A stretch of DNA of 64,000 nt from a virus (Duplodnaviria > Caudoviricetes). Under the pieces are notes generated by a model that worked only from the letters and a program-made list of their open reading frames with translations, did not search any database and was not told the origin of the DNA. Location: positions 1-64,000 of the IMG/VR virus record IMGVR_UViG_3300040801_001355. One strand, 5' to 3'. Shown here piece after piece: positions 10,998 to 55,117 of this stretch (the stretch's first letter is position 1; the number at the start of each line of letters is the position of its first letter). Both the position numbers and the translations under genes were made by a program.

Positions 10998-11001
10998 AGA
11001 A

Positions 11002-20829: not shown

Positions 20830-20830
20830 C

Positions 20831-22697: not shown

Positions 22698-22698
22698 T

Positions 22699-25600
22699 AT
22701 GAATGACTATAAACCGCAAATAGTAACGCAATTTACAGGATTAAATTCCGCAGTCGCCCCAGAGTTAATTAACGATGGAGACGCTCGTGATATATTAAAT
22801 TTTCGTATGGAGAAAGACGGCAAGCTGGTAAGCCGCAACGGCGTATATACTGGGCTACATAGCTTTGTGTGCGAAGATAACGATGCAGACCCAGCAATCA
22901 CTTGTGCTACTAACGAAGAAAATATAATGCGCAGGAAAAGCTATCTTCATAGTAGAGGTATACTTGGTATTGGTGAAATTGTATTAGATGGCTACCACAG
23001 CGGGCTAGATAGCGATAGATGTATGATTTATGCAATGCGTTCAGAACCATCAAAATTTTATACTGGCGATAGAAGATGGCAAACGACATATTTATTTGTA
23101 CCTTCTAAAGGGAGTTACACAAACACATTTATGCCAACGCGCACAGAAGACCCATACGATGCGGCTGATTGGGCTGATTTAAACGCTAACCCTGGCGTAC
23201 ACTTTTCGCATAAATACGACAAAGACCCTAACGGCATAGATTTTGTAGGCTCACAATTTTTAGACGCTCCTGATAGATGGGTAGCAGAAGAAGATGATAT
23301 TGATGAGATAACCGACCTATATAAGAATGACGACTGGATAAAACAGTACGTTGACTTTGAGCAATATAGACACAAGGTTTTAGTAGCTGATAGAATTAAT
23401 GGCGACTTAATGATAGAAGACGAATGGGATAGAGGTCATCGTGATGAGAATAATCACAACGCCCATGCGTTAAGACTACGTCCTAATACTCTGCAAAAAT
23501 TTAATATAGAAGATATTTATTTCGACCTATCTTTTAATAGTAATGGATATAACGATAAAGATAGCGGCGTCGAAACAGGAATGGGTTTATATAAGTTTGA
23601 GTTAGAAACAGATGTGACGGTAGCCACGAGAGACAATTTTGATGGGAGATTAACTGATACTAATTATCTTGGAGTTGACGCAGAAGAAATGAAAGGTGGG
23701 TGGGGCGCATATTTACGAGCAAGCTACTTAGTATCTGCTGGTGCGGTCTCAACTTTATTGAGTTTAGTTGAGCAGGCTTTGCCAAACTCCTCCGATGGCG
23801 GGATGGATATATGGAGTTATTGGTCAGTTAACAATGAATTGAAATACACATTTACAAATGAAAACACTAATGCCGAGTACGTCAACTTATTGTCACAGCC
23901 CAAAATAAAAGAACACAAATACTTTGACGAAACAACATCGGAAGAAATTAAAGAGTATCCCGCAGACTTTTATAAGTGGGACGATTTCTCTCTTGCTTAC
24001 TACCCAACTCTTGGCAGACGAGAAGATTATGAGTACTCTGGCACAGAGTCTAATGATGAATTTTTACTAAGAGATTATGACAGAGAGTTCACGCAAACCT
24101 CATCTACATCTCCTAAGATATACCCTTTAGATGAAAAGGAAGACCCCGCGAACCAAGTGCCATTAGGCGTATGGCGATATAGATTTGTATGGGATTTTGG
24201 CGATGGGATTTATTCAGCGCCGTCAGTCGATGTGCCTGCTCCAGATATTATGTGGTCACCATTGCGCGACAGCGGTTGCGTAGATAGCGGCAATTTATAT
24301 GATAGGCCAGAAAGATTTGGCAATAGTAAAAATGATTTAACATCACAATTCCTACAGCAATACACAGAACAAAGTGGGACATATAGCGGCAGTGATTACT
24401 CGCCATTTATAGATGTACCTCATATCTTTGACGCATCTGGGGATTTAACGCAATTCGGCCAACTCTTTTACGATATTAAAAATGAATTATACAGTGACGT
24501 ACAAAGCAAATACGGTACGCCGCCAAGCGGGGCGTCTAATATGTGGTCGCATAATGAGAAGGGAGATTTTTCTACTTTAATAACAACAGACTTTGGCGAT
24601 GGGATGTTGAAGTTAAATGGATTAGTTTGGGAAGGGTTTGGCACTACAAGGTCAATAGCTGATAACAATTATGTCGCGTCATTAAAAGTCTGGGACTTTG
24701 TTGATTTATCTTATCGGACGATAGGTGTGTCAAGTGTACGCGATAGTTTCTTGAATAATGGCGGCTTAATTGTCCCAATTTTTCAAGATAGCGGTAGGCC
24801 TGAAACGCAGAATTCTTTATTTGATGACGAAGGCAAATTGCGATTAGGGTGGAAGAGGGGGACGCCGACATCGGCGCCAACATTAGGTACGCAAGATTTA
24901 TTTGCACAACTAATTGTTCCTGGATTTTGCTTAACAGCAGGTCGCACGGAAACAAATAGCCCAAGTCAAGATATGTCTGACACATTCTTCTCAGATATCT
25001 TGATTCCAGAGTATGCAACACGCGCTGACTCATCAGATATATTTATAAATTTTGTATGCCAGGATGAAGTTACAGTAAACAATGACGACAAAAACAATGA
25101 GAATGATGGCACATTAGATTTAATTAGGCCCAACACATTGTTGCGCGCGACTAAAAGCAACGCAGATAGATTGGTGGTGACAAACCCACAGATACCAACA
25201 GAGGTTTTAGACAGACTTATTATCCAAGGGATAGTGCCATTGCATTTAATACAAAATGGCGATTATGTTGCAGCGCAAAGTCGATATAACGTTATGACAG
25301 GAGGAGGCGCCCCAAGTTCTTTTGCGAGGAGCGTGCCACGTACAGCATATGGCTTTAAAACGTCGCCAACACAGTATAGGCATGCTGATGATAAGGCTGC
25401 TACACGTATTAGTAATGGCGATACTTTTGTTGACAACTTAGATGTGCGCATTTATGGAGAAGGTGAACGCTTGATGATACCTGAACAACTCAGCTCAATC
25501 TTCCCAAGTTCGCTACTCTTTGAAGCACCGCGTATCGCGATACGCATTAACGAAGACAAAGTGCCTAAGAGAGCTAAGAGGTTGTTAATATTTAGAACGG

Positions 25601-27825
25601 TCGCATCGCACAGAAATGATTACGACCCCAATTCATTTGGGTTAGTAGATGAAGTTGATGTGCCATGGAATGGGGCGTCAGTTCAAACATCATTAAAAGA
25701 CGGCAAATTGGCGTATGATGGTTCATTCAATAATAGAGAAACCAATACAGTAGAGGGCATATATTTCTTCGATGACGTACAAGATGACGCGTTAGATTTT
25801 AGTGAGGATATTTCAAAGTATGACGGGTTGACTGAACCAATCAAGTCCCGCTTTAACATGGCGCTTAATGAAAGGGTTTACTACTCTAACTTTGAAGAAA
25901 GCTATCAGCCACATCAGCACAAATCTTATGTGCGTGGCGTTGGCCCATCACAACCCATTGACCAATTGCAACCCAAATATAAGAAAATTACAAGTCCTAA
26001 GGGCGATATTTGGATGACGAACCAAGCACATTATGTATTCGCCTATGAAGATATAAATGGGGTTGTATCTCCATCAACACAAATAGTTACTATTTATACA
26101 ACCTCAGATAAAGCAAATGTCTTTTATAACTTAGGCTTTGCTTATGACTCTTCTATTAAACAACTGAACGTGTATCGCTCTACGAATAGTTTACCGAAAA
26201 CTCTCAATGAAGTTGCGAGGAGTTATGAGATAGGCGAAACAATTGATGGCGTTAACTTTTATAAGATAGGTGAGTTAGAATATGATAACGAAGGGATATT
26301 TTTAGATGATAATCTACCCAATGGCTCGCTGGCTCCCGAGGTGGTGAAAGTAGGAGATAACGATATAAGGCCAAACTTCAAGCCATCCACTTATAATTAT
26401 GAAAGTGCTTTACGTTGGTCAGAGCCATATCTTCCTGATAAAATTAAGAGCGACAGTTTTTCTGAGTATCGAGCAGGAGACGGCGACCAAATTACAGGCG
26501 TGGAATCTCAATATGGCAACTTGGTAATATTCAAAGAGAACTCAATCCATAGGGTTGCAGTACAAGCAGCGGACCCGCCATTGTCACGTACTGATGAGAT
26601 TACTCCTGAATACGGGTGTATCGCACCTAATACTCTTATTAACGTGGATAACACTCTTTACTTCTTATCGTGGAAAGGGTTGATAATGTATGATAACAAT
26701 AAGCTGCAAAAGATTGACGGCAAATTTGACGAAGAGCTACAGTTAGTTATCAAGGAAGCGGGCGACCACATACGTGATGCAGCGTGTGGGTACAACCCAT
26801 ACTTTAATGAATTATATTTGAACGTACCAATGTTAAACAGCACCTCAGCAGTGCAGCCTGACGATGGCGGTGGTGGCGACATTGTTAATGGTGGTGACTT
26901 TAGCCCAGCATCTATAGACTTCCCTAACCCATATACTCAACGACAAAACATAGGTTATTATGGTAAGAAGAATCTATATGGTTATGATAGAGAAATCTTA
27001 GGCCACGTATACGTTATACATCTTGGCGGGAACTATGTGACTAAATTTAGTTATATACCACAGATTTATGTGGACGACGTAACATATTTATCTCGTATAC
27101 ACCAATCACAATTACTGCGTAAATACTATACCAACTCTCTCGGAGAAATGAGAAGCGCTGATATACACCCATCTCGATATGGATGGCAAGATGATAAGCT
27201 CAAGCACGCAGGCTTTTACATAGAGACCCCATACAACAAAGATGGACGCAGCACATTTATAGATGAAGACGAATTGTTGGATGCGCGACAATACTCAGGT
27301 GAATATACAGATGCAGTGGACTGGGAGTTAGATTTAAACCAACGAATTACATACCCATTCTTAGAAGAGTTCCGAAGCAAATTCTTCACAGGTGGCAGTG
27401 AGTCTGTTATTAAAAGAGTCCGCCAAACCCATAGCAATATGTTCTCTAAAGGATATATAACTATGAGGGGTATATCAATACCTAATGATTCAATAGACGA
27501 TAGGATAGATAACTTACACAATGTCACGCGTGATGTCGAAAAGATATTTACACGTAGAGACCAAACATTCGAGTATAATCCTACGATAGATTACGCAACA
27601 AACGACTATCATCCATTACATACTAATGACTATATTAGTGGAACGCAAACGAATCTACTACGTTTTATTAATAAGGCAGACTCCTTCGTAGACAACAAAG
27701 AATATGGGTGGAATGATTTAACAGGCAAGCCAATACGTTACGGGATAGATATTATCGCGTCTAAAAGAACGCAAATAAATCAGATAGGATTTTATTGGAG
27801 AGCTATACATAGTTATCTTGGATAA
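22699..27825 (+). CDS. large tail nozzle/muzzle (P22 gp10/T7 gp12-like) protein
   Basis: N-terminal FTGLN...DARDILNFR..KDGKL..RNG; C-terminal GDQITG...LVIFKENSI...GCIAP...LYFLS; follows the ring genes. Confidence 0.7.
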   Translation: MNDYKPQIVTQFTGLNSAVAPELINDGDARDILNFRMEKDGKLVSRNGVYTGLHSFVCEDNDADPAITCATNEENIMRRKSYLHSRGILGIGEIVLDGYHSGLDSDRCMIYAMRSEPSKFYTGDRRWQTTYLFVPSKGSYTNTFMPTRTEDPYDAADWADLNANPGVHFSHKYDKDPNGIDFVGSQFLDAPDRWVAEEDDIDEITDLYKNDDWIKQYVDFEQYRHKVLVADRINGDLMIEDEWDRGHRDENNHNAHALRLRPNTLQKFNIEDIYFDLSFNSNGYNDKDSGVETGMGLYKFELETDVTVATRDNFDGRLTDTNYLGVDAEEMKGGWGAYLRASYLVSAGAVSTLLSLVEQALPNSSDGGMDIWSYWSVNNELKYTFTNENTNAEYVNLLSQPKIKEHKYFDETTSEEIKEYPADFYKWDDFSLAYYPTLGRREDYEYSGTESNDEFLLRDYDREFTQTSSTSPKIYPLDEKEDPANQVPLGVWRYRFVWDFGDGIYSAPSVDVPAPDIMWSPLRDSGCVDSGNLYDRPERFGNSKNDLTSQFLQQYTEQSGTYSGSDYSPFIDVPHIFDASGDLTQFGQLFYDIKNELYSDVQSKYGTPPSGASNMWSHNEKGDFSTLITTDFGDGMLKLNGLVWEGFGTTRSIADNNYVASLKVWDFVDLSYRTIGVSSVRDSFLNNGGLIVPIFQDSGRPETQNSLFDDEGKLRLGWKRGTPTSAPTLGTQDLFAQLIVPGFCLTAGRTETNSPSQDMSDTFFSDILIPEYATRADSSDIFINFVCQDEVTVNNDDKNNENDGTLDLIRPNTLLRATKSNADRLVVTNPQIPTEVLDRLIIQGIVPLHLIQNGDYVAAQSRYNVMTGGGAPSSFARSVPRTAYGFKTSPTQYRHADDKAATRISNGDTFVDNLDVRIYGEGERLMIPEQLSSIFPSSLLFEAPRIAIRINEDKVPKRAKRLLIFRTVASHRNDYDPNSFGLVDEVDVPWNGASVQTSLKDGKLAYDGSFNNRETNTVEGIYFFDDVQDDALDFSEDISKYDGLTEPIKSRFNMALNERVYYSNFEESYQPHQHKSYVRGVGPSQPIDQLQPKYKKITSPKGDIWMTNQAHYVFAYEDINGVVSPSTQIVTIYTTSDKANVFYNLGFAYDSSIKQLNVYRSTNSLPKTLNEVARSYEIGETIDGVNFYKIGELEYDNEGIFLDDNLPNGSLAPEVVKVGDNDIRPNFKPSTYNYESALRWSEPYLPDKIKSDSFSEYRAGDGDQITGVESQYGNLVIFKENSIHRVAVQAADPPLSRTDEITPEYGCIAPNTLINVDNTLYFLSWKGLIMYDNNKLQKIDGKFDEELQLVIKEAGDHIRDAACGYNPYFNELYLNVPMLNSTSAVQPDDGGGGDIVNGGDFSPASIDFPNPYTQRQNIGYYGKKNLYGYDREILGHVYVIHLGGNYVTKFSYIPQIYVDDVTYLSRIHQSQLLRKYYTNSLGEMRSADIHPSRYGWQDDKLKHAGFYIETPYNKDGRSTFIDEDELLDARQYSGEYTDAVDWELDLNQRITYPFLEEFRSKFFTGGSESVIKRVRQTHSNMFSKGYITMRGISIPNDSIDDRIDNLHNVTRDVEKIFTRRDQTFEYNPTIDYATNDYHPLHTNDYISGTQTNLLRFINKADSFVDNKEYGWNDLTGKPIRYGIDIIASKRTQINQIGFYWRAIHSYLG

Positions 27826-30581: not shown

Positions 30582-30689
30582 ATGACAACAGCAGAAATTA
30601 TAATGTTAAGTATTATCGTAGTAGGCGGCGTCGGCCTTATCGCAGGCGCAGTTTATATGAAGCGTTGGTTTGATAACCTGAGGCCATAA
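30582..30689 (+). CDS. 35-aa single-TM membrane peptide (not in the ORF track)
   Basis: MTTAEIIMLSIIVVGGVGLIAGAVYMKRWFDNLRP; SD ggag; TAATG coupling to the next gene. Confidence 0.6.
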   Translation: MTTAEIIMLSIIVVGGVGLIAGAVYMKRWFDNLRP

Positions 30690-31174
30690 TGCCATACAAA
30701 CCTCAATATATCGAGGTTCATTTTAGACGCGGCTTAGGATACAGCGTGCCAGATACAGTTGTGTCTATTGCAACGTTATCTTTACATAGCCACGCTGAAC
30801 TATATATAGATGGCTGGTCGTATTCCGCAACAATGAAAGAGGGAGTACGCAAAGTAAAAGGCAAAAGGCTTAACGATGGTACGTGGGATGTATATCGCAT
30901 TAGAGTAACGTCAGTACAGAAAAGGCAGATGCTGCAATTTTTCGAGGCGACTAAAGGTCTGCCGTATGATTATCTTGGCGTCATCTTTTTCATATGGATG
31001 CCATTTAGTATACAATGCCCTAAGAAATACTATTGTTTCGAGTGGGTGTTTGGCGCGTTACGAGCTGGCTTCAAAGAATTAGTGCCACCGTTTTTACCAA
31101 ATGTTTCTGGTCACGCATTACGTCGAATAGTAAAAGATTTAGAAAAGAAAAACGCGAAGTATTATGGAAGATAA
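30689..31174 (+). CDS. permuted papain-like (NlpC/P60, YiiX-type) enzyme
   Basis: His before Cys: HSHAELY...GLPYDYLG...KYYCFEW. Confidence 0.7.
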   Translation: MPYKPQYIEVHFRRGLGYSVPDTVVSIATLSLHSHAELYIDGWSYSATMKEGVRKVKGKRLNDGTWDVYRIRVTSVQKRQMLQFFEATKGLPYDYLGVIFFIWMPFSIQCPKKYYCFEWVFGALRAGFKELVPPFLPNVSGHALRRIVKDLEKKNAKYYGR

Positions 31175-31498: not shown

Positions 31499-34400
31499 AT
31501 GTCTAAAAGAAGACTGCCAAATAACGCCCCTTACCTACGCCCCATGGACAACAAGGAGCGAGATGCCACTCGCCGTAATAAAGGTATTCCTCCTAAGCAA
31601 ACAGCCTTATCTGTTCAAGACGTAAGAGACTACTCGACCCCCGAAGGGGCTGCACAAGCCAATGAGGAGATGAGAAGATTGCGCCTTGGTATAGACGAGG
31701 TGACCGCGCGTCTCCAAGGATTAGGCGGCGGTGATGCTGACACCTCAAGTATTAGAAATATTATTGGTGATGGTGATGGCGGTAGCGGCGGTGGATGGCG
31801 CAGTCCTCAATCAGGCTTTACTGTGCTGCATACTGACGCATACAAGCGTTCTGGCGCCCCCGTAGATTTCCCAAAAAGAATAGATGTATTAGACATTAAA
31901 GATTGGCCGCTGGTCTTTAATGAGCCCCCAATCCCCGTAGCAATTGAGTGGACTATATCAGGAAACCCCGACAACCTCATATACAACACATTGGATAATG
32001 GCGATGGATACACAGCGCATATCACCGCATCTGGGTACGTATTAACATCTCATATACGTGATGTGGTTGAAGAGTATCTTAGCGGCTATAGCGGCACCAT
32101 GGTGCAATCTGGGTTCACCGTAGAGCACGACCCTTATTTCGGCAGCGACCAAATAGTCAGTCTTCCTAAACAAATTGACATGCTTTCTTTTAAAGACTAC
32201 TCTCTTGCATATACGCGAGAACCTTTGCATGTTTTTACGCAGTGGACTTTATCGGGGGCACAAGACTCAGATGTAGAGCATGGCGATTATAACACTTTAG
32301 TGAATGACGCAGGGCATACAGCGTTTATCAGTGTATCAGGCATGATACCTTATGGCGACATAACAAGCTACCTTTCGGGTTGGACATCAGGGATGATTGT
32401 CGATATTAGTACATCGGGCGTCGTAGCTGGAGAAAGTGGGTATTCTGGGTACAGTGGTTACAGTGGTTACTCTGGATATAGTGGTCAGGATGGGGCGCCT
32501 GGCCCACAATCAGGCTTTACCGTCAGGCACAGAGTTGGCCCGTATAACAATGTGGCTGCGACAATCGACGCCGACAGAGTCAAAGCAGTTGATACATTAT
32601 TATTCGATGATGATGATATAGCTTTTACTATTCCGCCTTTACGCACCTATATATCGTGGTATATATCTGGTGACGCAGACGACTCAGGCTACAACACATT
32701 AGCGGACAACAGCGGGCACCAAGTCACTATCGCTGCATCTGGGCTGATACAGTATGGAGAGCTGACTGAATATATCAGCGGCTTTGTAAGTGGTATGATT
32801 AGCGGCTCGCCAAGCGCATCAGGGTACAGCGGTTACTCGGGCATTAGTGGGTACAGCGGTTACTCTGGTACGTCAGGTTACTCTGGCCAAGATGGCGCAA
32901 GTGGCTATAGCGGAGCAAGCGGAACGTCGGGATATTCAGGAATCAGTGGGCAAGATGGGGCGTCAGGCTACTCAGGATACAGCGGCTACTCAGGTCTCAG
33001 TGGATATAGTGGTGAGCCAGGTGATAGTGGCTACTCAGGATACTCGGGCTTGAGTGGTTATTCAGGTCAGGATGGTGAAAGTGGCTATAGCGGGGCGAGC
33101 GGAACGTCAGGATACAGTGGTTACTCGGGCATTAGTGGGTACAGTGGTGAACCTGGACGACTGTCAGGCTTTACTGTGCAGCATCATCCTTGGCTATCTG
33201 CAACGACCGTAGCGGACTTACCAAAGAAAATCGACGTCTTACAATTTAAAGATTTTTACTTAGCATCACAAGTGCCGCATCTTAACGTATATACGGAATG
33301 GTCCATTTCAGGATTAGATGATACCAGCGCTGGCAATACGGCTTATAATACATTGCTTAATAACGATGGGCATACGGCTGTAATATCAGTATCTGGTTTT
33401 GTTGCTTATGCCGAGCTGACAGAGTATATTTCTGGTTGGACGTCAGGCATGATAGTAGATATTGGCACGTCAGGCATTAACGAAGGCACATCAGGTTATA
33501 GCGGATATTCAGGATACTCGGGTTACAGTGGTTACTCTGGGTATAGTGGTCAGGACGGCACGATAGGAGAGGATGGCGCAAGTGGTTATAGCGGATATTC
33601 TGGCACGTCAGGTTACTCAGGTGAGCAAGGTGCATCAGGATATAGCGGTTACTCAGGACAAAATGGCGCATCAGGGTATAGTGGTTATAGCGGACAAGAC
33701 GGGGCAAGTGGATTTAGTGGCTACTCAGGCGAAGTAGGCGCATCAGGGTTTAGTGGTTACTCAGGTCAAGACGGAGTAAGTGGTTACAGCGGCTACTCAG
33801 GTCAAGACGGTGCGTCAGGATATAGTGGGGCAAGTGGTGCGTCAGGATATAGCGGCCAACCTGGACGACTATCAGGCTTTACTGTGCATGCTTACCATAA
33901 TATTTTTGGCACGTACGCTGTAGCTGATTCACCAAAGAAAATTGACGTCTTACAATTAAATAGCAGAGCGGTTGCTTTTAACAACCCTCCTCTTGAAGTG
34001 TTTAATCAATGGATTGTCTCAGGCGGCCCAGACGTTGACGACCCAGAAACATCTGGATATAACACATTGGTAGACGAGAGCGGACATACAGCATACGTCA
34101 GTATGTCAGGGTATATACCTCGCAATGTTATCGAAAGCTATTTATCAGGGTGGGTGTCAGGGATGATTGTTGACGTAGGTACATCAGGCATCCAAACAGG
34201 GGCGTCAGGATATAGTGGGTATAGCGGCTATTCGGGGTATAGTGGCGTTAGTGGCTTTAGTGGTTTTAGTGGAGCAAGTGGCACGGGGCCGAGTGGGTAT
34301 AGCGGCACGAGTGGTTATTCAGGTTATAGTGGTTACTCAGGAGAGCAAGGCACATCAGGCTATAGTGGTTACTCAGGTATCAGCGGACAAGACGGCACGT

Positions 34401-37400
34401 CGGGGTACTCAGGGCACAGCGGTCTAAGCGGATATAGTGGTTACTCAGGACAAGACGGTGTGTCAGGGTATAGTGGACAAGATGGACAAAGCGGTTATTC
34501 AGGAGTTAGCGGTTATAGTGGGTATAGCGGCATAAGCGGCCAGGACGGTGCGTCAGGTTATTCGGGCTACAGTGGCCAAGATGGCGTGAGCGGGTACTCT
34601 GGCATTAGTGGATACTCAGGATATAGTGGCACATCAGGATATTCGGGGTACTCAGGTCAAAATGGCATTAGTGGATATTCAGGACAAGATGGCGCGTCAG
34701 GTTATTCGGGATATTCAGGACAAGACGGAGCAAGCGGGTACTCAGGGTATAGTGGTCAGGATGGTCTTAGTGGATACAGCGGATACAGTGGTTACAGCGG
34801 CCAAGACGGGGCAAGTGGCTATAGCGGATACAGTGGTCAAGACGGAGCATCAGGCTACTCAGGATATTCAGGTCAAGACGGAGCATCAGGCTACTCAGGA
34901 TATAGTGGTGAACCTGGACGACTGTCAGGGTTTACTGTGCAACACCGCACATCATCAATAGATATCACGGATATAGATTTACCTAAGAAAATAGACGTGC
35001 TCCAATTCCAAGATTACAGTCCTGTTGGGACTACGGGGGCGTTGTGGTTCGGCAATGTATGGTCAATATCTGGGCAACTTGACGAGGCAGGATACAATAC
35101 ACTTACAGATAACAGTGGGCATACGGCATACATATCGTCATCTGGCTATGTATTTTATGATGACTTAACGGATTTTATCAGTGGCTTTGTGTCTGGCTCC
35201 ATAGAAGATTACGTAGAAAATTATGAAGGCATTAGTGGCCAAAGCGGCTATTCGGGGTACAGTGGATACTCAGGATATAGCGGCTCTAAAGGAGATAGCG
35301 GATACTCAGGGCAAGCTGGTTCGGACGGTCAATTCGGCGGCTTCTCGACAACGTTTATATTTAATGACGACACTACAGGCAGTGACCTTTCATCATTTAG
35401 AAGCGGCATATTACGATTTAACGATTCATTTATGGTGCCAAATATTGGCGTCTCAGAAATCACTGTGTCAAAAGATTATAGTGAAGAGGGATTGGCTGAT
35501 ATAGGAGATTGGCTCGCCAACTCAATACCAAGCAACGATGCGTATATACGTGTAAGCAACTTAAACAATCCTAATAAATTTGGTCTATTAAAAATAAATG
35601 ACGTGTCAGGATTTACGTATACAGTTAAATTGTATGTTGATGAAATCTTAGGTTACCCAGGAACTACAGCTAATCGTTCATGGGGTGCGTCAACAGATGG
35701 CGACCAAGTTTTATTATCAGTAACAACCATAGCCCAGTCAGGTTACAGCGGATATAGCGGCTACTCAGGTGAGCAAGGCGCGTCAGGTTACTCGGGTTAC
35801 TCAGGACAAGATGGGGCGATAGGTGCATCAGGCTACAGCGGCTACTCAGGACAAGACGGCGCGTCAGGATATAGCGGCTACTCAGGTCAAGATGGGGCGA
35901 TAGGAACAGACGGAAGATTTGGGGGCTTCTCAACTAACTTTATATTTAGCGGCGACTTAACAGGTGCAGATGTTATCGCAGATAGAAGTGGCGTTATTAA
36001 ATTCAATCAGTTGTATAGCACCAATACGACGGAAGTCACTTTTTCTAAAGACTATTCTACAGAAGGCCTCGGTAATATTCTTAATTGGTTAAGCGGGACA
36101 TTAACTAATAATAATGGGTACATTAGAATAGCAAACATTGACACACCGAGCCGTTATGTTCATTATAAAATTAATGATATATCAGGCTTTACGTACACTG
36201 TTAAAGCATACGTTGATTTAGTTGTGGGATACCCAGACAGCATCATTAATAGAATATGGGGTAGCATTGCAAATGGCAACGAAGTCTTTGTTAGCTTAAC
36301 GGATAACGGAGAACCAGGTGCGTCAGGATACAGTGGTTACTCAGGCTACTCTGGGTATAGTGGTCAAGACGGAGCAAGTGGCTACTCTGGGTATAGTGGT
36401 CAAGACGGAGCAAGTGGCTACTCTGGGTATTCAGGCCAAGATGGGCAAAGTGGGTATAGTGGTCAGGATGGAGCGTCAGGGTATTCAGGATATTCAGGTC
36501 AGGATGGAGCGTCAGGGTATAGCGGATACTCAGGACAAGATGGAGCGTCAGGATACTCAGGATACAGTGGGCAAGACGGCCCACAAGGCGCGTCAGGATA
36601 TAGTGGGTTCAGCGGTTACAGCGGTCAAAACGGCGATAGCACTACATACGGGACTCTTCCTAACAATAGTGATGCCGCAATTACGCCAACATACGAAGGA
36701 GTGCCTACAGGCGATACTCGTGGCAGTGGTTCAGTTGATTTACAAATGGCGCGTGGCTCTGCATCGCAAGTAACACATGGGGCTCATTCTTTTGCAGTTG
36801 GCGGGCATAGCACGTCTTATGGTATATATAACGCTGCGATAGGTTACGACCACTTTATATCTGGCGATTATAATATTGCTGCTGGGCGTGGGCACACAAT
36901 TGCTGAGGACAGGTCTATTGCTGTAGGATATGCCAATACTATTTCAGGTAACGATAACGCAGTTTTCGGCGGGGCAAACAGAGCGTATAGCGGTAGTCGC
37001 AACAATTTAATAGGCGGCGAAGGCATACAGTTAATCAACTCATTCGCAAACTTATTAGGTGGTGGAGCGCATCTTCTTACAAATAGTCATTTTAATATTG
37101 TTGCAGGCTCAGGACATAATGTTTATGGAAGCGGTAACGCTGCATTTGGGTGGGACACTTATATCAGCGGCGACTATAATGTAGGCGGTGGCCATAAGGC
37201 GTCCATACTTGGTAACGATAGTTTAGTTGGCGGATATTTGTCTTATGTAAGTGGTGATAGCTCTATAGCGTTTGGTAACACTGTATCTGTTACTGGAAAT
37301 TTTAGTACTGCTTTAGGCACGCAACACACAGTAATTGGCGGAGCTTCTGTAGCATTGGGTAGCACGCACGCCATAACAGAATCCTACAATGTCGCAGGCG

Positions 37401-38254
37401 GATATGGCCACGATATTTTTGGTAGTTATAATATTGCAATGGGCGATAGGCATCTTATATCAGGCACCCATAATGATGTTGATGGTCGCACTAATGTTGT
37501 ATCAGGCGATTACAATAGCGTCCATGGCCAAAACCACAATATGTCAGGCGACCATAATATAATAGCAAATTACCAAAATACTGTATTAGGTGACCACCAC
37601 ACTGTCTTATCAGATGGAAGTGTAGTTTATGGTCTTGGTAATACCGTTATTGGTGGCCACGACGTATATGTAAGTGGCATCGATTCAACGGCTATTGGGG
37701 CAACAAGTTTATGCGAAGTTAGAGGTAACTATAGTTTTCTTACGGGTTTTGACAATCATGCGGAAGAAAACCACGTAGCAGTCTTTGGTGCAAATGCGCT
37801 GGCATCACACCATAATGAATTTACAATAGGTGGGCCGATTGGCGGCGGCATTAATCGTCATGCCCAAACTGGTTCCGTTAGATACGTTGGACAAAGACCG
37901 TCGAATGGATTAAGCGAATTATATCTACGATACAATGATACGAAAAGATTTATTATCCCAGATTACACGTCATATCAATGTACCTTGCAGTATATTGGCA
38001 TGAAATTAGATGGGACAAAAATTAAGTCAGGCGAGCGCAAATTTTTAATACATCGTCGTAGCGGGGCGGGGACAGTCGTTTTAACTGGGCTTGAAACAAT
38101 AGGTTCTGACCATGAGTATGGCACGCCATCTTGCTTTATTGTGGTAACTGCTGACACAACAAATGGCTCGCTTAAAATACAAACGACTAATGGTGAATCA
38201 GCTACATATGATTGGGTCGCTACCTTATATTATACTCAAATCAGCACACAATAA
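31499..38254 (+). CDS. giant (2251 aa) collagen-like tail fibre/adhesin
   Basis: Gly-X-Ser tracts (GYS/GQD/GAS); six copies of a ~100-aa SGFTV..PK.ID.L..W.ISG..YNTL domain; two copies of a second domain; C-terminal ~14-aa YadA-head-like repeats. Confidence 0.85.
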   Translation: MSKRRLPNNAPYLRPMDNKERDATRRNKGIPPKQTALSVQDVRDYSTPEGAAQANEEMRRLRLGIDEVTARLQGLGGGDADTSSIRNIIGDGDGGSGGGWRSPQSGFTVLHTDAYKRSGAPVDFPKRIDVLDIKDWPLVFNEPPIPVAIEWTISGNPDNLIYNTLDNGDGYTAHITASGYVLTSHIRDVVEEYLSGYSGTMVQSGFTVEHDPYFGSDQIVSLPKQIDMLSFKDYSLAYTREPLHVFTQWTLSGAQDSDVEHGDYNTLVNDAGHTAFISVSGMIPYGDITSYLSGWTSGMIVDISTSGVVAGESGYSGYSGYSGYSGYSGQDGAPGPQSGFTVRHRVGPYNNVAATIDADRVKAVDTLLFDDDDIAFTIPPLRTYISWYISGDADDSGYNTLADNSGHQVTIAASGLIQYGELTEYISGFVSGMISGSPSASGYSGYSGISGYSGYSGTSGYSGQDGASGYSGASGTSGYSGISGQDGASGYSGYSGYSGLSGYSGEPGDSGYSGYSGLSGYSGQDGESGYSGASGTSGYSGYSGISGYSGEPGRLSGFTVQHHPWLSATTVADLPKKIDVLQFKDFYLASQVPHLNVYTEWSISGLDDTSAGNTAYNTLLNNDGHTAVISVSGFVAYAELTEYISGWTSGMIVDIGTSGINEGTSGYSGYSGYSGYSGYSGYSGQDGTIGEDGASGYSGYSGTSGYSGEQGASGYSGYSGQNGASGYSGYSGQDGASGFSGYSGEVGASGFSGYSGQDGVSGYSGYSGQDGASGYSGASGASGYSGQPGRLSGFTVHAYHNIFGTYAVADSPKKIDVLQLNSRAVAFNNPPLEVFNQWIVSGGPDVDDPETSGYNTLVDESGHTAYVSMSGYIPRNVIESYLSGWVSGMIVDVGTSGIQTGASGYSGYSGYSGYSGVSGFSGFSGASGTGPSGYSGTSGYSGYSGYSGEQGTSGYSGYSGISGQDGTSGYSGHSGLSGYSGYSGQDGVSGYSGQDGQSGYSGVSGYSGYSGISGQDGASGYSGYSGQDGVSGYSGISGYSGYSGTSGYSGYSGQNGISGYSGQDGASGYSGYSGQDGASGYSGYSGQDGLSGYSGYSGYSGQDGASGYSGYSGQDGASGYSGYSGQDGASGYSGYSGEPGRLSGFTVQHRTSSIDITDIDLPKKIDVLQFQDYSPVGTTGALWFGNVWSISGQLDEAGYNTLTDNSGHTAYISSSGYVFYDDLTDFISGFVSGSIEDYVENYEGISGQSGYSGYSGYSGYSGSKGDSGYSGQAGSDGQFGGFSTTFIFNDDTTGSDLSSFRSGILRFNDSFMVPNIGVSEITVSKDYSEEGLADIGDWLANSIPSNDAYIRVSNLNNPNKFGLLKINDVSGFTYTVKLYVDEILGYPGTTANRSWGASTDGDQVLLSVTTIAQSGYSGYSGYSGEQGASGYSGYSGQDGAIGASGYSGYSGQDGASGYSGYSGQDGAIGTDGRFGGFSTNFIFSGDLTGADVIADRSGVIKFNQLYSTNTTEVTFSKDYSTEGLGNILNWLSGTLTNNNGYIRIANIDTPSRYVHYKINDISGFTYTVKAYVDLVVGYPDSIINRIWGSIANGNEVFVSLTDNGEPGASGYSGYSGYSGYSGQDGASGYSGYSGQDGASGYSGYSGQDGQSGYSGQDGASGYSGYSGQDGASGYSGYSGQDGASGYSGYSGQDGPQGASGYSGFSGYSGQNGDSTTYGTLPNNSDAAITPTYEGVPTGDTRGSGSVDLQMARGSASQVTHGAHSFAVGGHSTSYGIYNAAIGYDHFISGDYNIAAGRGHTIAEDRSIAVGYANTISGNDNAVFGGANRAYSGSRNNLIGGEGIQLINSFANLLGGGAHLLTNSHFNIVAGSGHNVYGSGNAAFGWDTYISGDYNVGGGHKASILGNDSLVGGYLSYVSGDSSIAFGNTVSVTGNFSTALGTQHTVIGGASVALGSTHAITESYNVAGGYGHDIFGSYNIAMGDRHLISGTHNDVDGRTNVVSGDYNSVHGQNHNMSGDHNIIANYQNTVLGDHHTVLSDGSVVYGLGNTVIGGHDVYVSGIDSTAIGATSLCEVRGNYSFLTGFDNHAEENHVAVFGANALASHHNEFTIGGPIGGGINRHAQTGSVRYVGQRPSNGLSELYLRYNDTKRFIIPDYTSYQCTLQYIGMKLDGTKIKSGERKFLIHRRSGAGTVVLTGLETIGSDHEYGTPSCFIVVTADTTNGSLKIQTTNGESATYDWVATLYYTQISTQ
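32431..36635 (+). repeat. interrupted Gly-X-Y triplet coding repeats (SGY/SGQDGA)
   Basis: Seven tracts, the longest about 34199-34918; exact 36-bp tandem copies at 34835/34871 and about 36345-36430. Confidence 0.9.
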
Positions 38255-38259
38255 AAACC

Positions 38260-38297
38260 GTGACTTGCGTCACATTTAATAATTCATTATATTCGCA
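38260..38297 (+). promoter_or_regulatory. promoter with overlapping inverted repeat
   Basis: CTTG(38264-38267)-N20-TATATTCGCA(38288-38297); GTGAC-ttgc-GTCAC (38260-38273) spans the -33 box. Confidence 0.7.
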
Positions 38298-38327
38298 ACT
38301 TATCATTACACACAGCGAGGAGAATTA

Positions 38328-40082
38328 ATGACTGAACTACAAGAGAAGTACGGCAACCATTGGGAGAGGGCTGTCCGACATGACGGTGAGTCCATGCACA
38401 ATTTAGAAAAAGGCCGATACGATTGGGCGGCGCTATTTGTATTGGAGCATCTCCAGAGAAATCCAGAGGTCAATATTACTGAGATAGCCTCATCTAATGG
38501 ATACGGCATCAACTATATTTTAAATATAGTAAAGGGATACGTGCCAAATGCTAAAGTCAACGTTACTTGTTACGACTACGACGACAAGGTTTTAAAGCTT
38601 GGCAAGAAAATGTTTGGCAAGAAAGCAAACTCGTGGAGTTACCACCAAAAAGATTTACGCAAAGAAAAGGATGTCCAATCTATTATAGACAACAATAAAG
38701 CTGACATCACGCTATTCTTTGAAGTGTTAGAGCACGTTGAAAATGGCAAAGAACTTGCTGTTGAGTTAGCTGAACAAACATCTGGCATCTTTTTAGCGAG
38801 CACCCCATACAATGAAACGCCTGGATTCTGGGGGCCGCATCACGTCTTGCACAATATAAAGCCCGAAGACTTTAAAGAAGGTGTGTTTGATTGGATGTAT
38901 ATAACTCCGTCTGGTGCGCACGGCTGGAACCCAGTCGCTACAAAACCTGACAACTTATTGATAGGTTCATCAAAAGATGGGGAGGCATGGAATCTCGATT
39001 TTTTACAGAAGCCTACTGTAACCGCTACAGTCTCGACCAAAGGAAGGTACGATACAACCTTGCCATTGACTTTAATGGGGATCGCAACACAAGCGTTATT
39101 GCCTGATGAAGTGATAGTATACGATGATAACGCGCAAGAAGATAGGGTTGACTTTAACAAGCACCCAATATTATCACACATTATTAATCTTTTCGCGATT
39201 AAAAAAGTGCGGTTCAACGTCATCTACGCACCTGGTCAAGGACAAGTACCTAACCATCAGCACGCATTAGATAATTGCACAACTAAATATCTGTGGAGAA
39301 TAGATGATGACAACTTTACAGAAGGCGATGTCTTAGCCAAATTACTAAAGCGCATTGAACAGAGCGATGAGATTGGTGCAGTAGGTGGAAATGTATTCTT
39401 TACAACAAGAAACTTTGTTGCGCCAAAACCAGATTATGTCAAAGCGAACACATCGTATCATCTATACGAAGGGTGTACAAATATGTGGTTTGCACGTACA
39501 GATGAAGAAGAAGTTGACCACTTATATTCTACATTTCTTTATAGAGTAGAAGCGGCTCGTAAAGGTGGCGGGTATCAAGACGACCTTTCTCCTGTTGGGC
39601 ATGGCGAAGAAACGGTGTTTACAGCACGCATTAAAGAGGCTGGGTACAAGTTAATCACTATGCCAAATACAACGACATGGCACATGCAAGAAATGAAGGG
39701 CGGCATCCGCAGTTACTCACATAAATTTATGTGGGACCATGACGAAAAAAGAAAGCGTGAAGCTCTTGATAAATTGGGGTGGGACCCTGAGCCACACGGA
39801 GAAAAGACAATTCTTCTTGAACACGGCTTAGGCGACGTTATTGCATTCAGAGAAGTCTTGGATGAAACTTTAGCTGAGGCAGATGACGATACTAAAATCA
39901 TTATCTTCACAGGATACCAAGAGGTCTTTGAAGATTATTTAGATGACCCACGTGTTGAGTTGTTGTTACCTTCGCAGTTCGTTAAGACAGCAGAACATGG
40001 CACAACATCTGTTTATAAATGGATGAATGAGAATAATTTCAGTGGGCATATTACTGACGCATATAGGAGGATGCACAAATGA
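38328..40082 (+). CDS. SAM-dependent methyltransferase + GT2 glycosyltransferase + N-terminal GT-B (GT9-like) fragment fusion
   Basis: EIASSNGYG/FEVLEHV/STPY; VSTKGRY...DEVIVYDDN, WRIDDD, GEET; C-terminal EHGLGDVIA. Confidence 0.85.
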   Translation: MTELQEKYGNHWERAVRHDGESMHNLEKGRYDWAALFVLEHLQRNPEVNITEIASSNGYGINYILNIVKGYVPNAKVNVTCYDYDDKVLKLGKKMFGKKANSWSYHQKDLRKEKDVQSIIDNNKADITLFFEVLEHVENGKELAVELAEQTSGIFLASTPYNETPGFWGPHHVLHNIKPEDFKEGVFDWMYITPSGAHGWNPVATKPDNLLIGSSKDGEAWNLDFLQKPTVTATVSTKGRYDTTLPLTLMGIATQALLPDEVIVYDDNAQEDRVDFNKHPILSHIINLFAIKKVRFNVIYAPGQGQVPNHQHALDNCTTKYLWRIDDDNFTEGDVLAKLLKRIEQSDEIGAVGGNVFFTTRNFVAPKPDYVKANTSYHLYEGCTNMWFARTDEEEVDHLYSTFLYRVEAARKGGGYQDDLSPVGHGEETVFTARIKEAGYKLITMPNTTTWHMQEMKGGIRSYSHKFMWDHDEKRKREALDKLGWDPEPHGEKTILLEHGLGDVIAFREVLDETLAEADDDTKIIIFTGYQEVFEDYLDDPRVELLLPSQFVKTAEHGTTSVYKWMNENNFSGHITDAYRRMHK

Positions 40083-40555
40083 TTGTATTAATATCACCTT
40101 TTAGCAAGAAGACAATGAATGGCGACCCATCGCCTAAAGACTATCCATACTGGAATGATGTAATTGACATTTTAAAACGTAAATTAAAGGACGATATATA
40201 TATAGTGCAGATTGGCGTTCATGGTGAGGAGAGGCTCAACGGCGTTGATAAGGTTTCCAACAATCTATCGTTCAAAGGTTTAAAAAAAGTTATCAGTGAA
40301 ATAGACGGGTGGGTAGCAGTAGACAATTTCTTTCACCACTTTGTACACGCATATACTCCAGAGGTAAAGGGCGCAGTGTTGTGGGGGCCATCAAGCCCAC
40401 AGCACTTTGGGTATGAAGAACAGCTTAACTTAGTAAAAGACCCTAAGTATTTTAGGCCAGACCAATTTGGTGTATGGCATGATGTAGAGCCAAACCCAGA
40501 CGCTTTCTTAGACCCTGGCACAGTAGCCGATATACTCATCAAAGAATTTGGGTAA
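40079..40555 (+). CDS. GT9/heptosyltransferase-like C-terminal domain
   Basis: ISPFS...KDYPYW, IVQIG, VAVDNFFHH, VLWGPSSP..FGY; ATGA overlap with the upstream gene. Confidence 0.8.
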   Translation: MIVLISPFSKKTMNGDPSPKDYPYWNDVIDILKRKLKDDIYIVQIGVHGEERLNGVDKVSNNLSFKGLKKVISEIDGWVAVDNFFHHFVHAYTPEVKGAVLWGPSSPQHFGYEEQLNLVKDPKYFRPDQFGVWHDVEPNPDAFLDPGTVADILIKEFG

Positions 40556-40592: not shown

Positions 40593-40892
40593 ATGGATAA
40601 GAATTTACGTAAAGACGACGATAGAGAGTTTTTAAAGTCGAAAGAGTTATGGGTAGTAGGTGCTGTTGCATTGGCGTTATTTTTACTGACATACTTTTTT
40701 GCCCAAGAGTTTTCAAGTTTTACAGCGGGAATCTTACGCTCGACAATTGTTGTCTTATTCTTAGTCGCAGTAGATAAATTTTTACTCAAAGACATAAGCA
40801 CGATAAATGAAATCAAAAATAACAATATTGCTTTTGGGCTGCTTCTTATGGCTATCGCTATCATCATACACGCAGGATTCGCAGCGGTGTGA
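40593..40892 (+). CDS. putative holin (3 TM)
   Basis: Three hydrophobic segments; SD aaggag; precedes the endolysin. Confidence 0.6.
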   Translation: MDKNLRKDDDREFLKSKELWVVGAVALALFLLTYFFAQEFSSFTAGILRSTIVVLFLVAVDKFLLKDISTINEIKNNNIAFGLLLMAIAIIIHAGFAAV

Positions 40893-41445
40893 CGTAGTAT
40901 GCGAGGCGGAGCAGGAATTGGGCGTCAATAAAAAAGACGACCAAGAACGCATATTGGATTATTTAGAAAGCGTGAATATTACGCGGTACGCTAATTGGTG
41001 TGCCGCGTTTGTACGTTTTATCTTGGATGAGGCTAACGCAAAGTACCCAACAAAAAGGTCTGGAGTTGCACAGCACTATAAATTTAAAGATTCATGGGAC
41101 GCACGAGATGTGTTGAATAAAAAAGTAACAGTACCTCGTGGCTCGATAGTAGTGTGGGCACGACGCAATTCATGGACTGGACATATCGGATTCACCACAA
41201 AAGATTGGAGTGGTAAACGGGGAAATACAATCGAAGGTAATACGACTACATTAATCAAGGGCGGTGGCGAGCAAGAGAGAGCGGGAGGTTACGTTGCAGA
41301 AAAGCGCCGTGCAATTGAACCGTATAACTATTGGCGCATTGTTGCATTTACACGAGTAGAATACAATGAAGAGATGGCTCAAAACAATCATCGCCCTAAT
41401 TGCGATAAGTCTCATCATGTTAGGTTGCTGTCCAAAGATAACTGA
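40807..41445 (+). CDS. CHAP-domain endolysin with N-terminal signal-like segment
   Basis: NWCAAFV, GHIGF, IEGNT; N-terminus MKSKITILLLGCFLWLSLSS. Confidence 0.85.
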   Translation: MKSKITILLLGCFLWLSLSSYTQDSQRCDVVCEAEQELGVNKKDDQERILDYLESVNITRYANWCAAFVRFILDEANAKYPTKRSGVAQHYKFKDSWDARDVLNKKVTVPRGSIVVWARRNSWTGHIGFTTKDWSGKRGNTIEGNTTTLIKGGGEQERAGGYVAEKRRAIEPYNYWRIVAFTRVEYNEEMAQNNHRPNCDKSHHVRLLSKDN

Positions 41446-44947: not shown

Positions 44948-47900
44948 ATGAGTATCAATAGCAACTATCAAGCTTTACAGCCAACATCTTGGTTAGAGGA
45001 AGAGCGCGAAAAAGAAAAGAAACGTCGCGACTCAATACGTCAAACAGAAGAATATCGATCAATATATGGTGGCGACTCGCTTGCCGCGCCGCCTACCCCG
45101 TCTATGGATTTAACAGGAGGGGCGGACGAAGGCCCATCGTGGCTAAACCCTCGTCCTCAAGACCAAGTCAGACAACGCAGGGCTTCTGTTTTTGACATCA
45201 TTAAAAACACTCAATCCGTATTTAACCCTGACGCCAAGCCATTAGGCTATGGTACGGAGTCTGTTGAGATGAATAATATCAGAAGGTTAGCTGCCGATGG
45301 ACAGATAACCATAACAGATAACGGTGATATATTTAGAAATTATTTAGATGACGACGGCAATGTTCAACGCGAAACAATACCAACTCATTATGTGGATACT
45401 AACGAGGGCAAGGTTAAACCTTACTCTTATACTGATGAAGATAAGAAAGAGTGGTGGGAACTTGCACCTAAATTGATTACTCATACCAACCCATTGACTG
45501 CGCCAATTGCGATGGGGTTAGACGCTATTACTAAAAGTACGACAGGACAAATTGATGCAGAGCAATTTGAAACCAAAGCTCGTCAAGAAACTCCTAAGCA
45601 ATTAGACGATGAAGCTTCTCTCAACACAGCGGTCGAACACTTTATGGTGAATCCCGTTGAGAAAGTAGCTGACGCCTTTATGAGTATCGGTACAACTGGG
45701 CGACAACAGGGGGACGTAGATTTATTTAAGAGTGGAGAAGGCAGTAAATATAATACGTACCAAGCAGTAGGGGCTATAGCTAATGATGTGACAACCGCGT
45801 TGACGGCAGGGGTAGTCGCGACAGTTGCGACAGGCGGCGTAGCAACAACTGCGTTAGCTTCTGCTATACCGTCAATACGCGCAACATGGCATGATGTAGC
45901 AAGCGGCAAGATGACTACAACAGGTGGGGTTGAGCAAACCCTTATAGATGTAACAACGTCATGGGGTGGCTTGAAAGTAGCAAAAGCTCTTGGTCCAGCG
46001 TCACGAGCAGGACGACAAGCTATTACTAAAGCAGCAGAAGCAGGATACAACCCGTTTTTAACAGCGTATAAAAATGGAATGCGATATGTTATAGCGCCTA
46101 ACGCTATCAACTTTGGGGTTGATGCAGCGGGGGGTGCAGCTACTGCGGCTATAAATATATCCCAAACACAAGACGTAAACCTACAAGATGCTGAGCAACA
46201 AAAAGCCATAGCTTTACAAGCACTATTGGAAGGTGGGCTGGGGTTATCTCTTGGCATTATTATGGACGCGGTTGATGTTGGCAAGATAAGTAGAAGTATT
46301 AAAAATAATAAAGCCAACACACCTCCCGTTCCAGAAGACCGCAGTGTTAAAGAGAAGTTAGACGATTTAAGACGACAGCAAAATGCAGATAAAGATGATG
46401 GTAATTTAGACGCCAATATAAGAGACGCTGTTGCCCAGCGTTTAATATGGGAGCCTAATTTAACATACGACCCAGATGCTATAGCTACCTCTCTTATTAA
46501 CGACTTTAATATACAACCATCAAAGCACGGGTTATTAGTCGAGCACGTAACTCATGCGATGGAAGCACAGAAATTACTTGCAAATATTAAAAGTTCAGCA
46601 GACGCTAAGTTAGGCTTAGCTGACGAACCTATCGCACAATATGTAACCGATGAAGTGGTCGCGACTGCTTCGGCTATTAAACCAAATAGCAAGGTGTTAA
46701 AAAATTCTGACTTTGTGGCAACGGAGCAGTTGTTAAGCGGCAAAGAGCCAACGGAGGAGTTGCAACGACAATCATTCCGTGAGCTAAATAACATGAGTAA
46801 CCTCATGTATGGGCGAGGTATCGCGGCAGACAATGCAGGTGATTTGCTGTCTGATATGGATAGCTTTAGTAAAGGTGCCGTGCCTTCTAATTATATCCCG
46901 CCGTCTAACTCTTACTATGGCCAAGCATTCGACCAATTAAATACGGTTGAAGGACTGGACGAAACAGTCAGCCAAGGAGCGTTAGAACTTATGGCTCGTG
47001 GCGAAGTATCACAATTACTTAATCAACAATTTGATGTGCTGCAAGAAATAGGTTTATCAGCAGAAGACGCAGGCGATATATTAAAGCATGCGTATCTTGG
47101 GTTAGATAAAGACATGCCTAACTCAGCAGACTTCTTTGACACAATAAATAAGGCAATACAAAAAGACGGTGAGCTTCGTACGCTTGTTGATATAGACAAT
47201 AAACTATCAGACCACATTGACGATAACCATGAGCTGTATGATATATACGGCGATAATTTATTAAGAATTGTGCAGAGGGAACCAGGGTTAAGTTTCGTAC
47301 AGACTCCTGACCCAGCAACGGAAGCAGCTATACAAGTCGAGCCGACTCCCGCAGAAAGCCAGGTACTTGACGAGGCCACCACTAAAATTGTTAACGATAA
47401 TGTTGACGCCATGTCACCCGAAGCTAAAGAAGATGTCGCAACTAATCTAAAGAACTTAGAGAGCGACAAAGTGGGCGGGGAAGATGCGGCAAAAGAAACA
47501 ACTGACTTCCTTAGTGGTAGCCCAAAGCGTGAAGAAAACGTAGCTAAATATGAAGCAGCTCAAAATGACGCATCTAATCAAGCGGAGGAAACTACTAATC
47601 GTCACAATTTAACTCAGAACCGCGATAATAAAATGATGCAGCTGTGGAATGATTGGGTTAATAAACGTCGGACAAAGAAGTTTTGGGGTGCATTTGGCAA
47701 AGACTTAGAGATAGATGATGATTCAGAAGGCGCGTGGGATTATACGTTTGGGCGCGATATAACAGGAGTCTTCGAGCCAACGGCCAATTGGCCTTATGGG
47801 CTTGTGGCTATACGCACAAAAAACGCATCTAATATTAAGTTTCCAACGTTAACTGATGCGGGCATCAGCTCTCCTCCGTTAACTATAGGCAATGAAACCC

Positions 47901-55076: not shown

Positions 55077-55117
55077 AGGCAACTTCTTCAAGTTCTTTGT
55101 CAAATGTTAGCTTCATA

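Follow-up and report, generated by a model that had tools for sequence, protein, structure and literature searches.

Why does a tailed phage encode glycosyltransferases directly behind a serine-rich, collagen-like fibre? The question is raised by three consecutive genes in a stretch of viral DNA (Duplodnaviria; Caudoviricetes) that covers positions 1 to 64,000 of the IMG/VR record IMGVR_UViG_3300040801_001355. This whole stretch of 64,000 nucleotides is called the window here. All three open reading frames (ORFs) named in the original prediction exist on the plus strand: P0001, the fibre (31499–38254), P0002 (38328–40082), and P0003 (40079–40555). P0002 contains a glycosyltransferase (GT) domain of the GT2 family and a small C-terminal lobe, while P0003 resembles one half of a GT9 enzyme. 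It had been predicted that these enzymes build a glycan on the serines of the fibre. The observation behind this prediction is confirmed, and the interpretation is partly supported, strongly on comparative grounds. The enzyme set probably glycosylates the fibre through an O-linkage, and Ser is the probable site.

The distribution of the enzymes among viruses with different collagens carries this reading. The GT2-lobe protein and the P0003-like C-lobe (P3) are called the module below. A survey of genomes for the co-occurrence of such fibres with these enzymes had been set in advance as the test of the original prediction. Starting from the collagens, a codon pattern for Gly-Tyr-(Ser/Thr) repeats, which picks up both Gly-Tyr-Ser and Gly-Tyr-Thr collagens, found at least 120 viral stretches, and a Gly-X-Thr pattern found another 120. 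Each collagen was typed at the protein level, and the whole records were then searched with the P3 profile. Among contigs with Ser-type collagens, P3 is present in 6 of 20 and 16 of 26, or 22 of 46 in all, with one weak, partial match among the 16. The count becomes 26 of 50 when the four known module contigs omitted from the first batch are included. The module is seen in no contig with a Thr-type collagen, Gly-Tyr-Thr included (0/12, 0/6, and 0/43; 0/61 together). The contrast between 22/46 and 0/61 corresponds to a Fisher p of about 2e-10, which is indicative only, as the contigs are not phylogenetically independent. The outcome of the survey is strongly positive and specific to the Ser type. 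Since the Gly-Tyr-Thr class keeps Tyr and lacks the module, the genomic correlate of the module is Ser, and neither Tyr nor collagen as such.

Tyr was also considered as the main acceptor and was rejected: the X position varies (Y/I/F/W/V/A), and Gly-Tyr-Thr collagens never occur with the module. These Gly-Tyr-Thr proteins make up a further widespread class of viral collagens that are poor in Pro (L101, L108, L118, L120, L131, L135, and others in IMG/VR; L106, L110, and L127 in GVMAG). The class reaches contigs of giant-virus metagenome-assembled genomes (MAGs), and there too the module is never present. The only P3-profile matches in Thr-type records are weak and partial, in G050 (104668–104931, in a 906-aa ORF, E 6.6e-14) and in G078 (7656–7898, 308 aa, E 1e-6). 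Both matches fall in other, distant GT9-like ORFs, and these two records may have glycosylation enzymes of their own.

The same association is seen from the side of the enzymes. In IMG/VR, 213 contigs encode a relative of the module, and 80 of these loci were examined. In 37 of the 80, an ORF with at least 10 Gly-X-Y triplets is found at most 10 kb away. In essentially all of these module-adjacent collagens Ser is dominant at Y, and X is mainly Tyr, Ile, Phe, or Trp. With the window and the phage P19250A (see below) counted, there are 38 loci where a Ser-type collagen ORF is at most 10 kb from the module. The distance is shorter than 100 bp in 17 of them and shorter than 1.5 kb in 25, and the two are on the same strand in 35. 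The collagen is located 5' of the module in some loci and 3' in others, in different phage types. Of the module loci, 23 span 18 kb or more, and in this set a Ser-type collagen is found within 10 kb in 16 and on the contig in 20. Clustering of the GT2 domains at 70% identity gives 40 clusters, 30 of which include a contig with Ser-type collagen. At 55% identity the domains fall into 12 clusters, and 11 of them include such a contig; the association thus persists over deep divergence. The enzyme of the window is a singleton.

The module is restricted to viruses: the 213 IMG/VR contigs compare with 3 MAG contigs in 185,579 species-representative genomes. Two of these three are binned with ammonia-oxidising archaea, and may be either mis-binned viral contigs or archaeal viruses. 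One, from a Nitrosotalea sp. MAG (L330, JAHEYD010000010.1), has the gene order of the window, namely collagen, methyltransferase, GT2, and P3. In the other, from a Nitrososphaeria MAG (L331), the P3 match is in two separate pieces.

Among 50,697 deposited phage genomes, megablast with the enzyme region found no match, and tblastn found only one, the Methylophilaceae phage P19250A, at 30% identity. This cultured siphovirus encodes a collagen, a methyltransferase, a GT2-lobe protein, and a P0003 homologue in the order seen in the window. Its gene P19250A_0023 (L001, KX815270.1, 8306–11911) is annotated as a tape measure, but really encodes a 1201-aa Gly-(Tyr/Phe/Trp/Ile)-Ser collagen-like protein. 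The three genes that follow it are annotated as hypothetical, and correspond to the methyltransferase, the GT2-lobe protein, and the split GT9 C-lobe.

In T4-like myophages, which make up the large group of loci with no collagen nearby, the arrangement is different. A cassette of an extra GT2, the GT2-lobe protein, P3, and a 294-aa ORF is placed between the genes for the gp21 prohead protease and the gp20 portal. A search of whole records found a Ser-type collagen elsewhere in 4 of 5 such records, with Ser at 80–100% of Y positions at the protein level; the reversed-pattern control gave no match. In a T4-like example (L042, IMGVR_UViG_3300025357_000908, 8922–12400), the four-gene cassette is on the opposite strand, the Ser-type collagen is more than 20 kb away, and the 294-aa ORF has no Pfam family.

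The putative substrate in the window is a protein of 2251 aa. P0001 matches Pfam Collagen (PF01391) over 14 stretches (E 5e-95) and PHROG tail-fibre families down to E 1e-92, where the PHROG scores are driven by the collagen repeats. An N-terminal region of about 100 aa is followed by six globular modules of about 100 aa each, which begin with SGFTV, at residues 105, 204, 338, 556, 792, and 1143. Two modules that begin with FGGFST (residues 1279 and 1474) and a 537-aa non-collagen C-terminal region are also present. Both kinds of modules interrupt the Gly-X-Y repeats, and the collagen-like span (32429–36640, plus strand) consists of eight runs of 9, 38, 43, 10, 70, 13, 21, and 37 triplets. Uninterrupted runs thus reach 70 triplets, which agrees with a collagen triple-helix repeat (PF01391), and the repeat content is far above chance. 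By script count there are 241 triplets, with GYS (111), GAS (30), and GQD (29) among them. Ser occupies 181 of the 241 Y positions (75%) and Tyr 111 of the 241 X positions, while Pro is found at only 8 of the 482 X and Y positions (1.7%). The original prediction, which described more than a hundred triplets with Ser at Y, Tyr at X, and little Pro, was accurate in this respect. The serines at the Y positions are the proposed acceptors. The C-terminal non-collagen part (36641–38254, plus strand) is composed of beta-roll/beta-helix repeats and a distal domain of about 190 aa. Pfam LbR_Ice_bind, a beta-roll family, matches it in five stretches (E 1.9e-18), the best at residues 1967–2045, and this part is presumed to be the receptor-binding end.

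P0002 (584 aa, plus strand) starts 73 bp past the stop codon of the fibre gene. Its AlphaFold model, with a predicted local distance difference test (pLDDT) score of 84, has three domains: a Rossmann methyltransferase fold (residues 1–215), a GT-A fold (230–480), and an alpha/beta lobe (490–584). In an alignment with 19 relatives (A1), P0002 retains 30 of the 30 invariant residues, including the R-x-D-D-D motif. The GT2 domain (39015–39767) matches PF00535 with E 1.6e-9 and 38.3 bits against a Pfam cut-off of 23.3. The model of this domain has a pLDDT mostly above 85, and its acidic motif, R324-x-D326-D327-D328, is invariant in A1. Foldseek matches the P0002 model best, with E about 1e-10, to PDB structures of polypeptide GalNAc-transferases, chondroitin polymerase (K4CP), and TarP. 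This result establishes the GT-A fold only; that protein O-glycosyltransferases top the list can be taken as a lead suggested by the model. The NCBIfam scan gave only weak, generic GT2 matches, and PHROGs include no family for either P0002 or P0003.

The N-terminal 215 residues of P0002 (38328–38972) resemble, in divergent form, class I S-adenosylmethionine-dependent methyltransferases, with Methyltransf_11 (PF08241) at E 0.0029 and a Rossmann fold in the AlphaFold model. The family profile of this domain matches UbiG- and WbdD-type methyltransferases in the PDB. It is an optional part, present in about a quarter of the modules. The extra GT2 is likewise optional, and the conserved core is made up of two transferase activities.

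The C-terminal lobe of P0002 (39795–40079, about 95 aa) has an invariant G-L-G-D behind its first strand. The gene for P0003 (158 aa, plus strand) follows at once, overlapping the P0002 stop by the four bases ATGA. P0003 corresponds to the C-lobe of a GT9-like GT-B enzyme, a Rossmann domain that binds the nucleotide sugar. On its own it has no match to PF01075 at E ≤ 0.1, to any other Pfam family, or to any PHROG, but 17 of 20 relatives match PF01075, the best at E 1.8e-9. P0003 retains every residue that is invariant in the alignment of 20 family members (A2). The A2 profile aligns with residues 180–294 of Escherichia coli WaaC (E 2.4e-5), pairing K20 with K192, V-D-x-F-x-x-H with S-V-D-T-G-L-S-H (containing D261), and G-x-S-D-P with G-P-T-D-P. 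In GT9 heptosyltransferases these motifs bind ADP-heptose, K192 being the Lys that contacts the donor. The AlphaFold model of P0003 has a pLDDT of 96.5, and its top seven Foldseek matches are all GT9 enzymes (TMq 0.54–0.73).

Of 80 viral loci, about 74 have a P0003 homologue immediately 3' of the gene for the GT2-lobe protein. In some proteins the two are joined. P0146 (252 aa) is a single chain of exactly the lobe and P3, and P0028 (940 aa) combines GT2, methyltransferase, GT2, lobe, and P3 domains in one polypeptide. Other natural lobe-P3 fusions are P0136 and several GT2-lobe-P3 chains. Longer relatives of P0003 were missed by a word-based search; the exhaustive profile search, which gave 309 clusters at 50% identity (E ≤ 1e-30), did find fusions, with longer proteins making up about a quarter of its top 150. 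Where members of the P3 family extend further at the C-terminus, the addition consists of more GT2 domains, and no fusion of enzyme and collagen is among them. The natural single-chain fusions establish that the lobe of P0002 and P0003 together make up one split enzyme, read here as a GT9-like GT-B enzyme. The lobe would be its acceptor-side N-lobe, given these fusions and the structural look-alikes of residues 490–584 in the Atlas, namely GT9, the N-domain of Kdo-transferase, and UDP-GlcNAc 2-epimerase (TM 0.61–0.68), which are leads only. In being encoded by two genes, the pair departs from the usual GT9, in which one polypeptide of about 320 aa includes an acceptor lobe that can be recognised at its N-terminus. 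The domain assignments of the original prediction, a fusion of a methyltransferase-like domain, GT2, and a GT-B N-lobe with a GT9-like partner, are borne out by profiles and models.

From these facts the following scheme can be proposed. The three genes would form a late, co-transcribed cassette for glycosylation of the virion fibre. The fibre protein would be made in the cytoplasm, where the two glycosyltransferase activities act on it; neither enzyme has a membrane segment, the top 19-aa hydropathy being 1.21 for P0002 and 0.71 for P0003, so both are expected to be soluble. One activity would be the GT-A enzyme of the P0002 GT2 domain, and the other the GT-B enzyme composed of the P0002 lobe and P0003. 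One of them would initiate a glycan on the protein and the other extend it, giving a short O-linked chain whose most probable site is the Y-position Ser of Gly-X-Ser. The methyltransferase-like domain, where active, might cap or methylate a sugar. As no gene for the synthesis of nucleotide sugars was found in the window, the donors would have to be nucleotide sugars of the host, UDP-hexose or UDP-N-acetylhexosamine for the GT-A enzyme and possibly ADP-heptose for the GT9-like one. The product can be pictured as a proline-free collagen stalk coated with glycans and bearing globular modules and a beta-roll tip. Such a coat might stabilise the fibre, shield it, or change the host range. That a Ser-linked sugar stabilises the triple helix is a speculation; the stabilisation of vent-worm collagen depends on Thr.

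The 73-bp gap between the fibre gene and P0002 (38255–38327, plus strand) contains a small hairpin, GTGAC-TTGC-GTCAC, and a good ribosome-binding site, GAGGAG. The scan around it found 8 promoter-like sites against 8.8 expected from shuffles. The promoter that the original prediction assigned to the enzymes is therefore not supported. The placement of the three genes among virion genes was right. Their neighbours include the large terminase (8451–10997), the portal (11002–13047), a capsid-like protein (14140–15459), an SU10-adaptor-like protein (17070–17738), an SLT transglycosylase (20729–21583), and a CHAP/tail-lysozyme-like protein (40807–41445). A DnaB-type helicase (1846–3261) and, on the minus strand, an ERF/YqaJ recombination pair are also encoded in the window. 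Two giant plus-strand ORFs in the structural region, 22687–27825 (1712 aa) and 44948–52513 (2521 aa), have no Pfam or PHROG match, and may be ejection, internal virion, or tape-measure-like proteins. Two genes 5' of the fibre, a 161-aa ORF (30689–31174, plus strand) matches phrog_1128 ("enoyl-CoA hydratase/carnithine racemase-like", E 7e-26) and no Pfam family. A MazG/PRA-PH-type pyrophosphohydrolase ORF is located at 4742–5521 (plus strand). A C5-cytosine DNA methylase-like ORF of 221 aa (54438–55103, minus strand) covers only the first third of the family model.

Several observations weigh against glycosylation of the fibre by these enzymes. The contigs share ancestry and habitat, and the Fisher test overstates their independence. 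About half of the contigs with Ser-type collagen lack the module, which is thus not obligatory, though most of these contigs are fragments. In T4-like phages the cassette is among head genes, away from the fibre. With a stricter seven-triplet pattern, some fairly complete module contigs gave no Ser-type collagen (G085, 77% complete); this pattern is insensitive, having missed a known collagen of L032/L081, and its outcome of 1/10 was not used as evidence of absence. The lobe profile (A3) has no meaningful match among PDB sequences, so the assignment as an N-lobe has no support at that level. The closest solved relatives of P0003 are lipopolysaccharide (LPS) heptosyltransferases. The protein heptosyltransferase TibC is only at Foldseek rank 37 (TMq 0.59), below LPS enzymes. 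TIGR04414, the family of bacterial autotransporter heptosyltransferases (BAHT), is unmatched in NCBIfam, both by P0003 (no match at E ≤ 0.01) and among the 25 best of the 26 families for P0028. As for the methyltransferase, Methyltransf_11 reaches 18.7 bits, below the Pfam cut-off of 21.2, and motif I of P0002 reads E-I-A-S-S-N-G-Y-G, where Ala replaces the first Gly of the E-I-G-C-S-S-G-Y-G of its relatives in A1. Of the predicted methylated sugar, the methyltransferase-like domain stands, and methyl transfer by P0002 in this phage is uncertain.

Some of these observations would fit other roles. The enzymes might glycosylate other virion proteins, such as the capsid, the tail tube, or the globular modules of the fibre, and the tie to Ser-type collagens would then reflect shared lineage or the co-transfer of a fibre with its accessory genes. 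The position of the T4-like cassette between prohead protease and portal genes and the Ser-type collagens without a module speak for this, and mycobacteriophage glycans are on the capsid and the tail tube (cited in PMC12619734). It leaves unexplained, however, why the module abuts Ser-type collagens in 17 loci, in both gene orders, with Ser-type collagens in 11 of 12 deep clusters, and why it is absent from 61 of 61 contigs with Thr-type collagens. This explanation is considered unlikely. Glycosylation of hypermodified phage DNA for the evasion of restriction has still less in its favour, and its probability is very low. Phage enzymes of the GT-A and GT-B folds are known to act on DNA (Pyle et al. 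2024, as cited in PMC12619734), and the window has the methylase-like ORF at 54438–55103. However, no gene for a hydroxymethylase or for base hypermodification turned up in the window, the cassette is in a structural operon outside the replication module, and DNA as the substrate gives no cause for a dependence on Ser rather than Thr in a collagen.

The module might instead remodel the host envelope (LPS core, O-antigen, or capsule), either against superinfection or for the release of progeny. WaaC and WaaF (PDB 2GT1, 2H1H, 1PSW) are the best matches of P0003 in both sequence and structure, sharing Lys192, Asp261 in S-V-D-x-x-x-x-H, and G-P-T-D-P, and papers on pelagimyophages and actinophages interpret phage glycosyltransferases in this way (PMC7029224, PMC10202952). 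The identity is, however, only 15–17%. In WaaC one chain of about 325 aa includes an acceptor lobe of about 170 aa, which binds Kdo2-lipid A, whereas the lobe of the split enzyme has about 95 aa, is located on another polypeptide, and has no sequence relationship to the WaaC N-domain. In addition, the enzymes are soluble and virus-restricted, their genes are inside late structural operons and coupled specifically to Ser-type collagens, and the module is also seen on contigs binned with archaea. An envelope target is accordingly judged improbable. The original prediction had counted clustering with LPS enzymes against itself, and here the result is divided: P0003 is nearest to LPS heptosyltransferases, but at low identity and with an unrelated acceptor lobe, and TibC has the same fold. 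None of the three alternatives, all of them unlikely, explains the Ser-specific coupling together with the abutment. Glycosylation of the fibre remains the preferred reading.

Known systems show how its components could work together. Alg13/Alg14 is a split, membrane-anchored GT-B UDP-GlcNAc transferase of the MurG-like family, which acts on dolichol-linked sugars. It resembles the enzyme of the window in being divided at the inter-lobe linker into acceptor-side and donor-side polypeptides, and differs in its GT family, its membrane anchor, and its dolichol-linked acceptors. We know of no reported split GT9. The glycan of BclA, the collagen-like protein of Bacillus anthracis, terminates in the methylated sugar anthrose. 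SgtA of Clostridioides difficile, a GT2-type enzyme encoded beside bclA3, adds O-linked N-acetylglucosamine within collagen repeats (PMC7157674). In these systems a GT2-type enzyme, whose gene adjoins that of the fibre, puts O-linked glycans on the Gly-X-Y region of a collagen-like surface protein; glycosylation of P0001 is the predicted counterpart. Their substrates are, however, borne on spores and are Gly-Pro-Thr or Thr-rich, while the phage fibre has Ser at Y, Tyr, Ile, Phe, or Trp at X in its class, and almost no Pro. SgtA also has TPR repeats and lacks a GT9 partner.

A close functional parallel might be the BAHT enzymes of E. coli, TibC with its substrate TibA and Aah with AIDA-I (PDB 4RB4; PMC4358343). 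TibC has the heptosyltransferase fold with an atypically small N-lobe, and heptosylates Ser, not Thr, in a repetitive protein (PMC4358343). Like the split enzyme, the BAHT enzymes are soluble GT-B proteins of this fold class with a small N-lobe. Many Ser residues are modified by them in a long, repetitive protein of the cell surface whose gene is adjacent, which parallels the Ser-not-Thr pattern in the genomes here. The phage enzyme differs in the missing TIGR04414 match and the low rank of TibC, in its division over two genes and its fusion to GT2, and in showing no sign of a Cys4 iron finger or dodecamer. Its substrate would be collagen-like rather than a beta-helix, and the system is encoded by a phage. 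Decoration of a phage's own structural proteins by phage glycosyltransferases is described for mycobacteriophages (Freeman et al. 2023, as cited in PMC12619734 and PMC12801897). There the glycans are placed on the C-termini of capsid and tail-tube subunits, the enzymes belong to other families, and none of the substrates is collagen-like; that system is shown by experiment, and the one in the window is known from its genes.

In the full-text literature, no paper was found that ties phage glycosyltransferases or this module to collagen-like fibres, and the glycosyltransferases of aquatic phages are routinely interpreted as modifiers of LPS or DNA (PMC7029224, PMC10202952). The hypothesis is directly testable, because a cultured pair, phage P19250A and its Methylophilaceae host IMCC19250, carries the gene order of the window. 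If it is true, glycosylation of virion proteins, so far seen in mycobacteriophages, would reach many lineages of environmental phages. Proline-free Gly-X-Ser collagens would be a new class of substrate, and a GT9-type GT-B enzyme split over two genes and fused to GT2 would be a new enzyme architecture. The module would also provide a compact, soluble enzyme set for the site-repetitive Ser glycosylation of designed collagen-like materials. A bolder version, which we advance tentatively and with some doubt, is that the virus-only family of GT2 and split GT9-like enzymes is a dedicated machine for Ser-specific O-glycosylation of collagens, where the glycan stands in for Pro and hydroxyproline in stabilising or solubilising Gly-aromatic-Ser helices. 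Many aquatic phages, myophages, siphophages, and jumbo phages among them, would then have glycan-coated fibres that affect host recognition and the survival of the particle.

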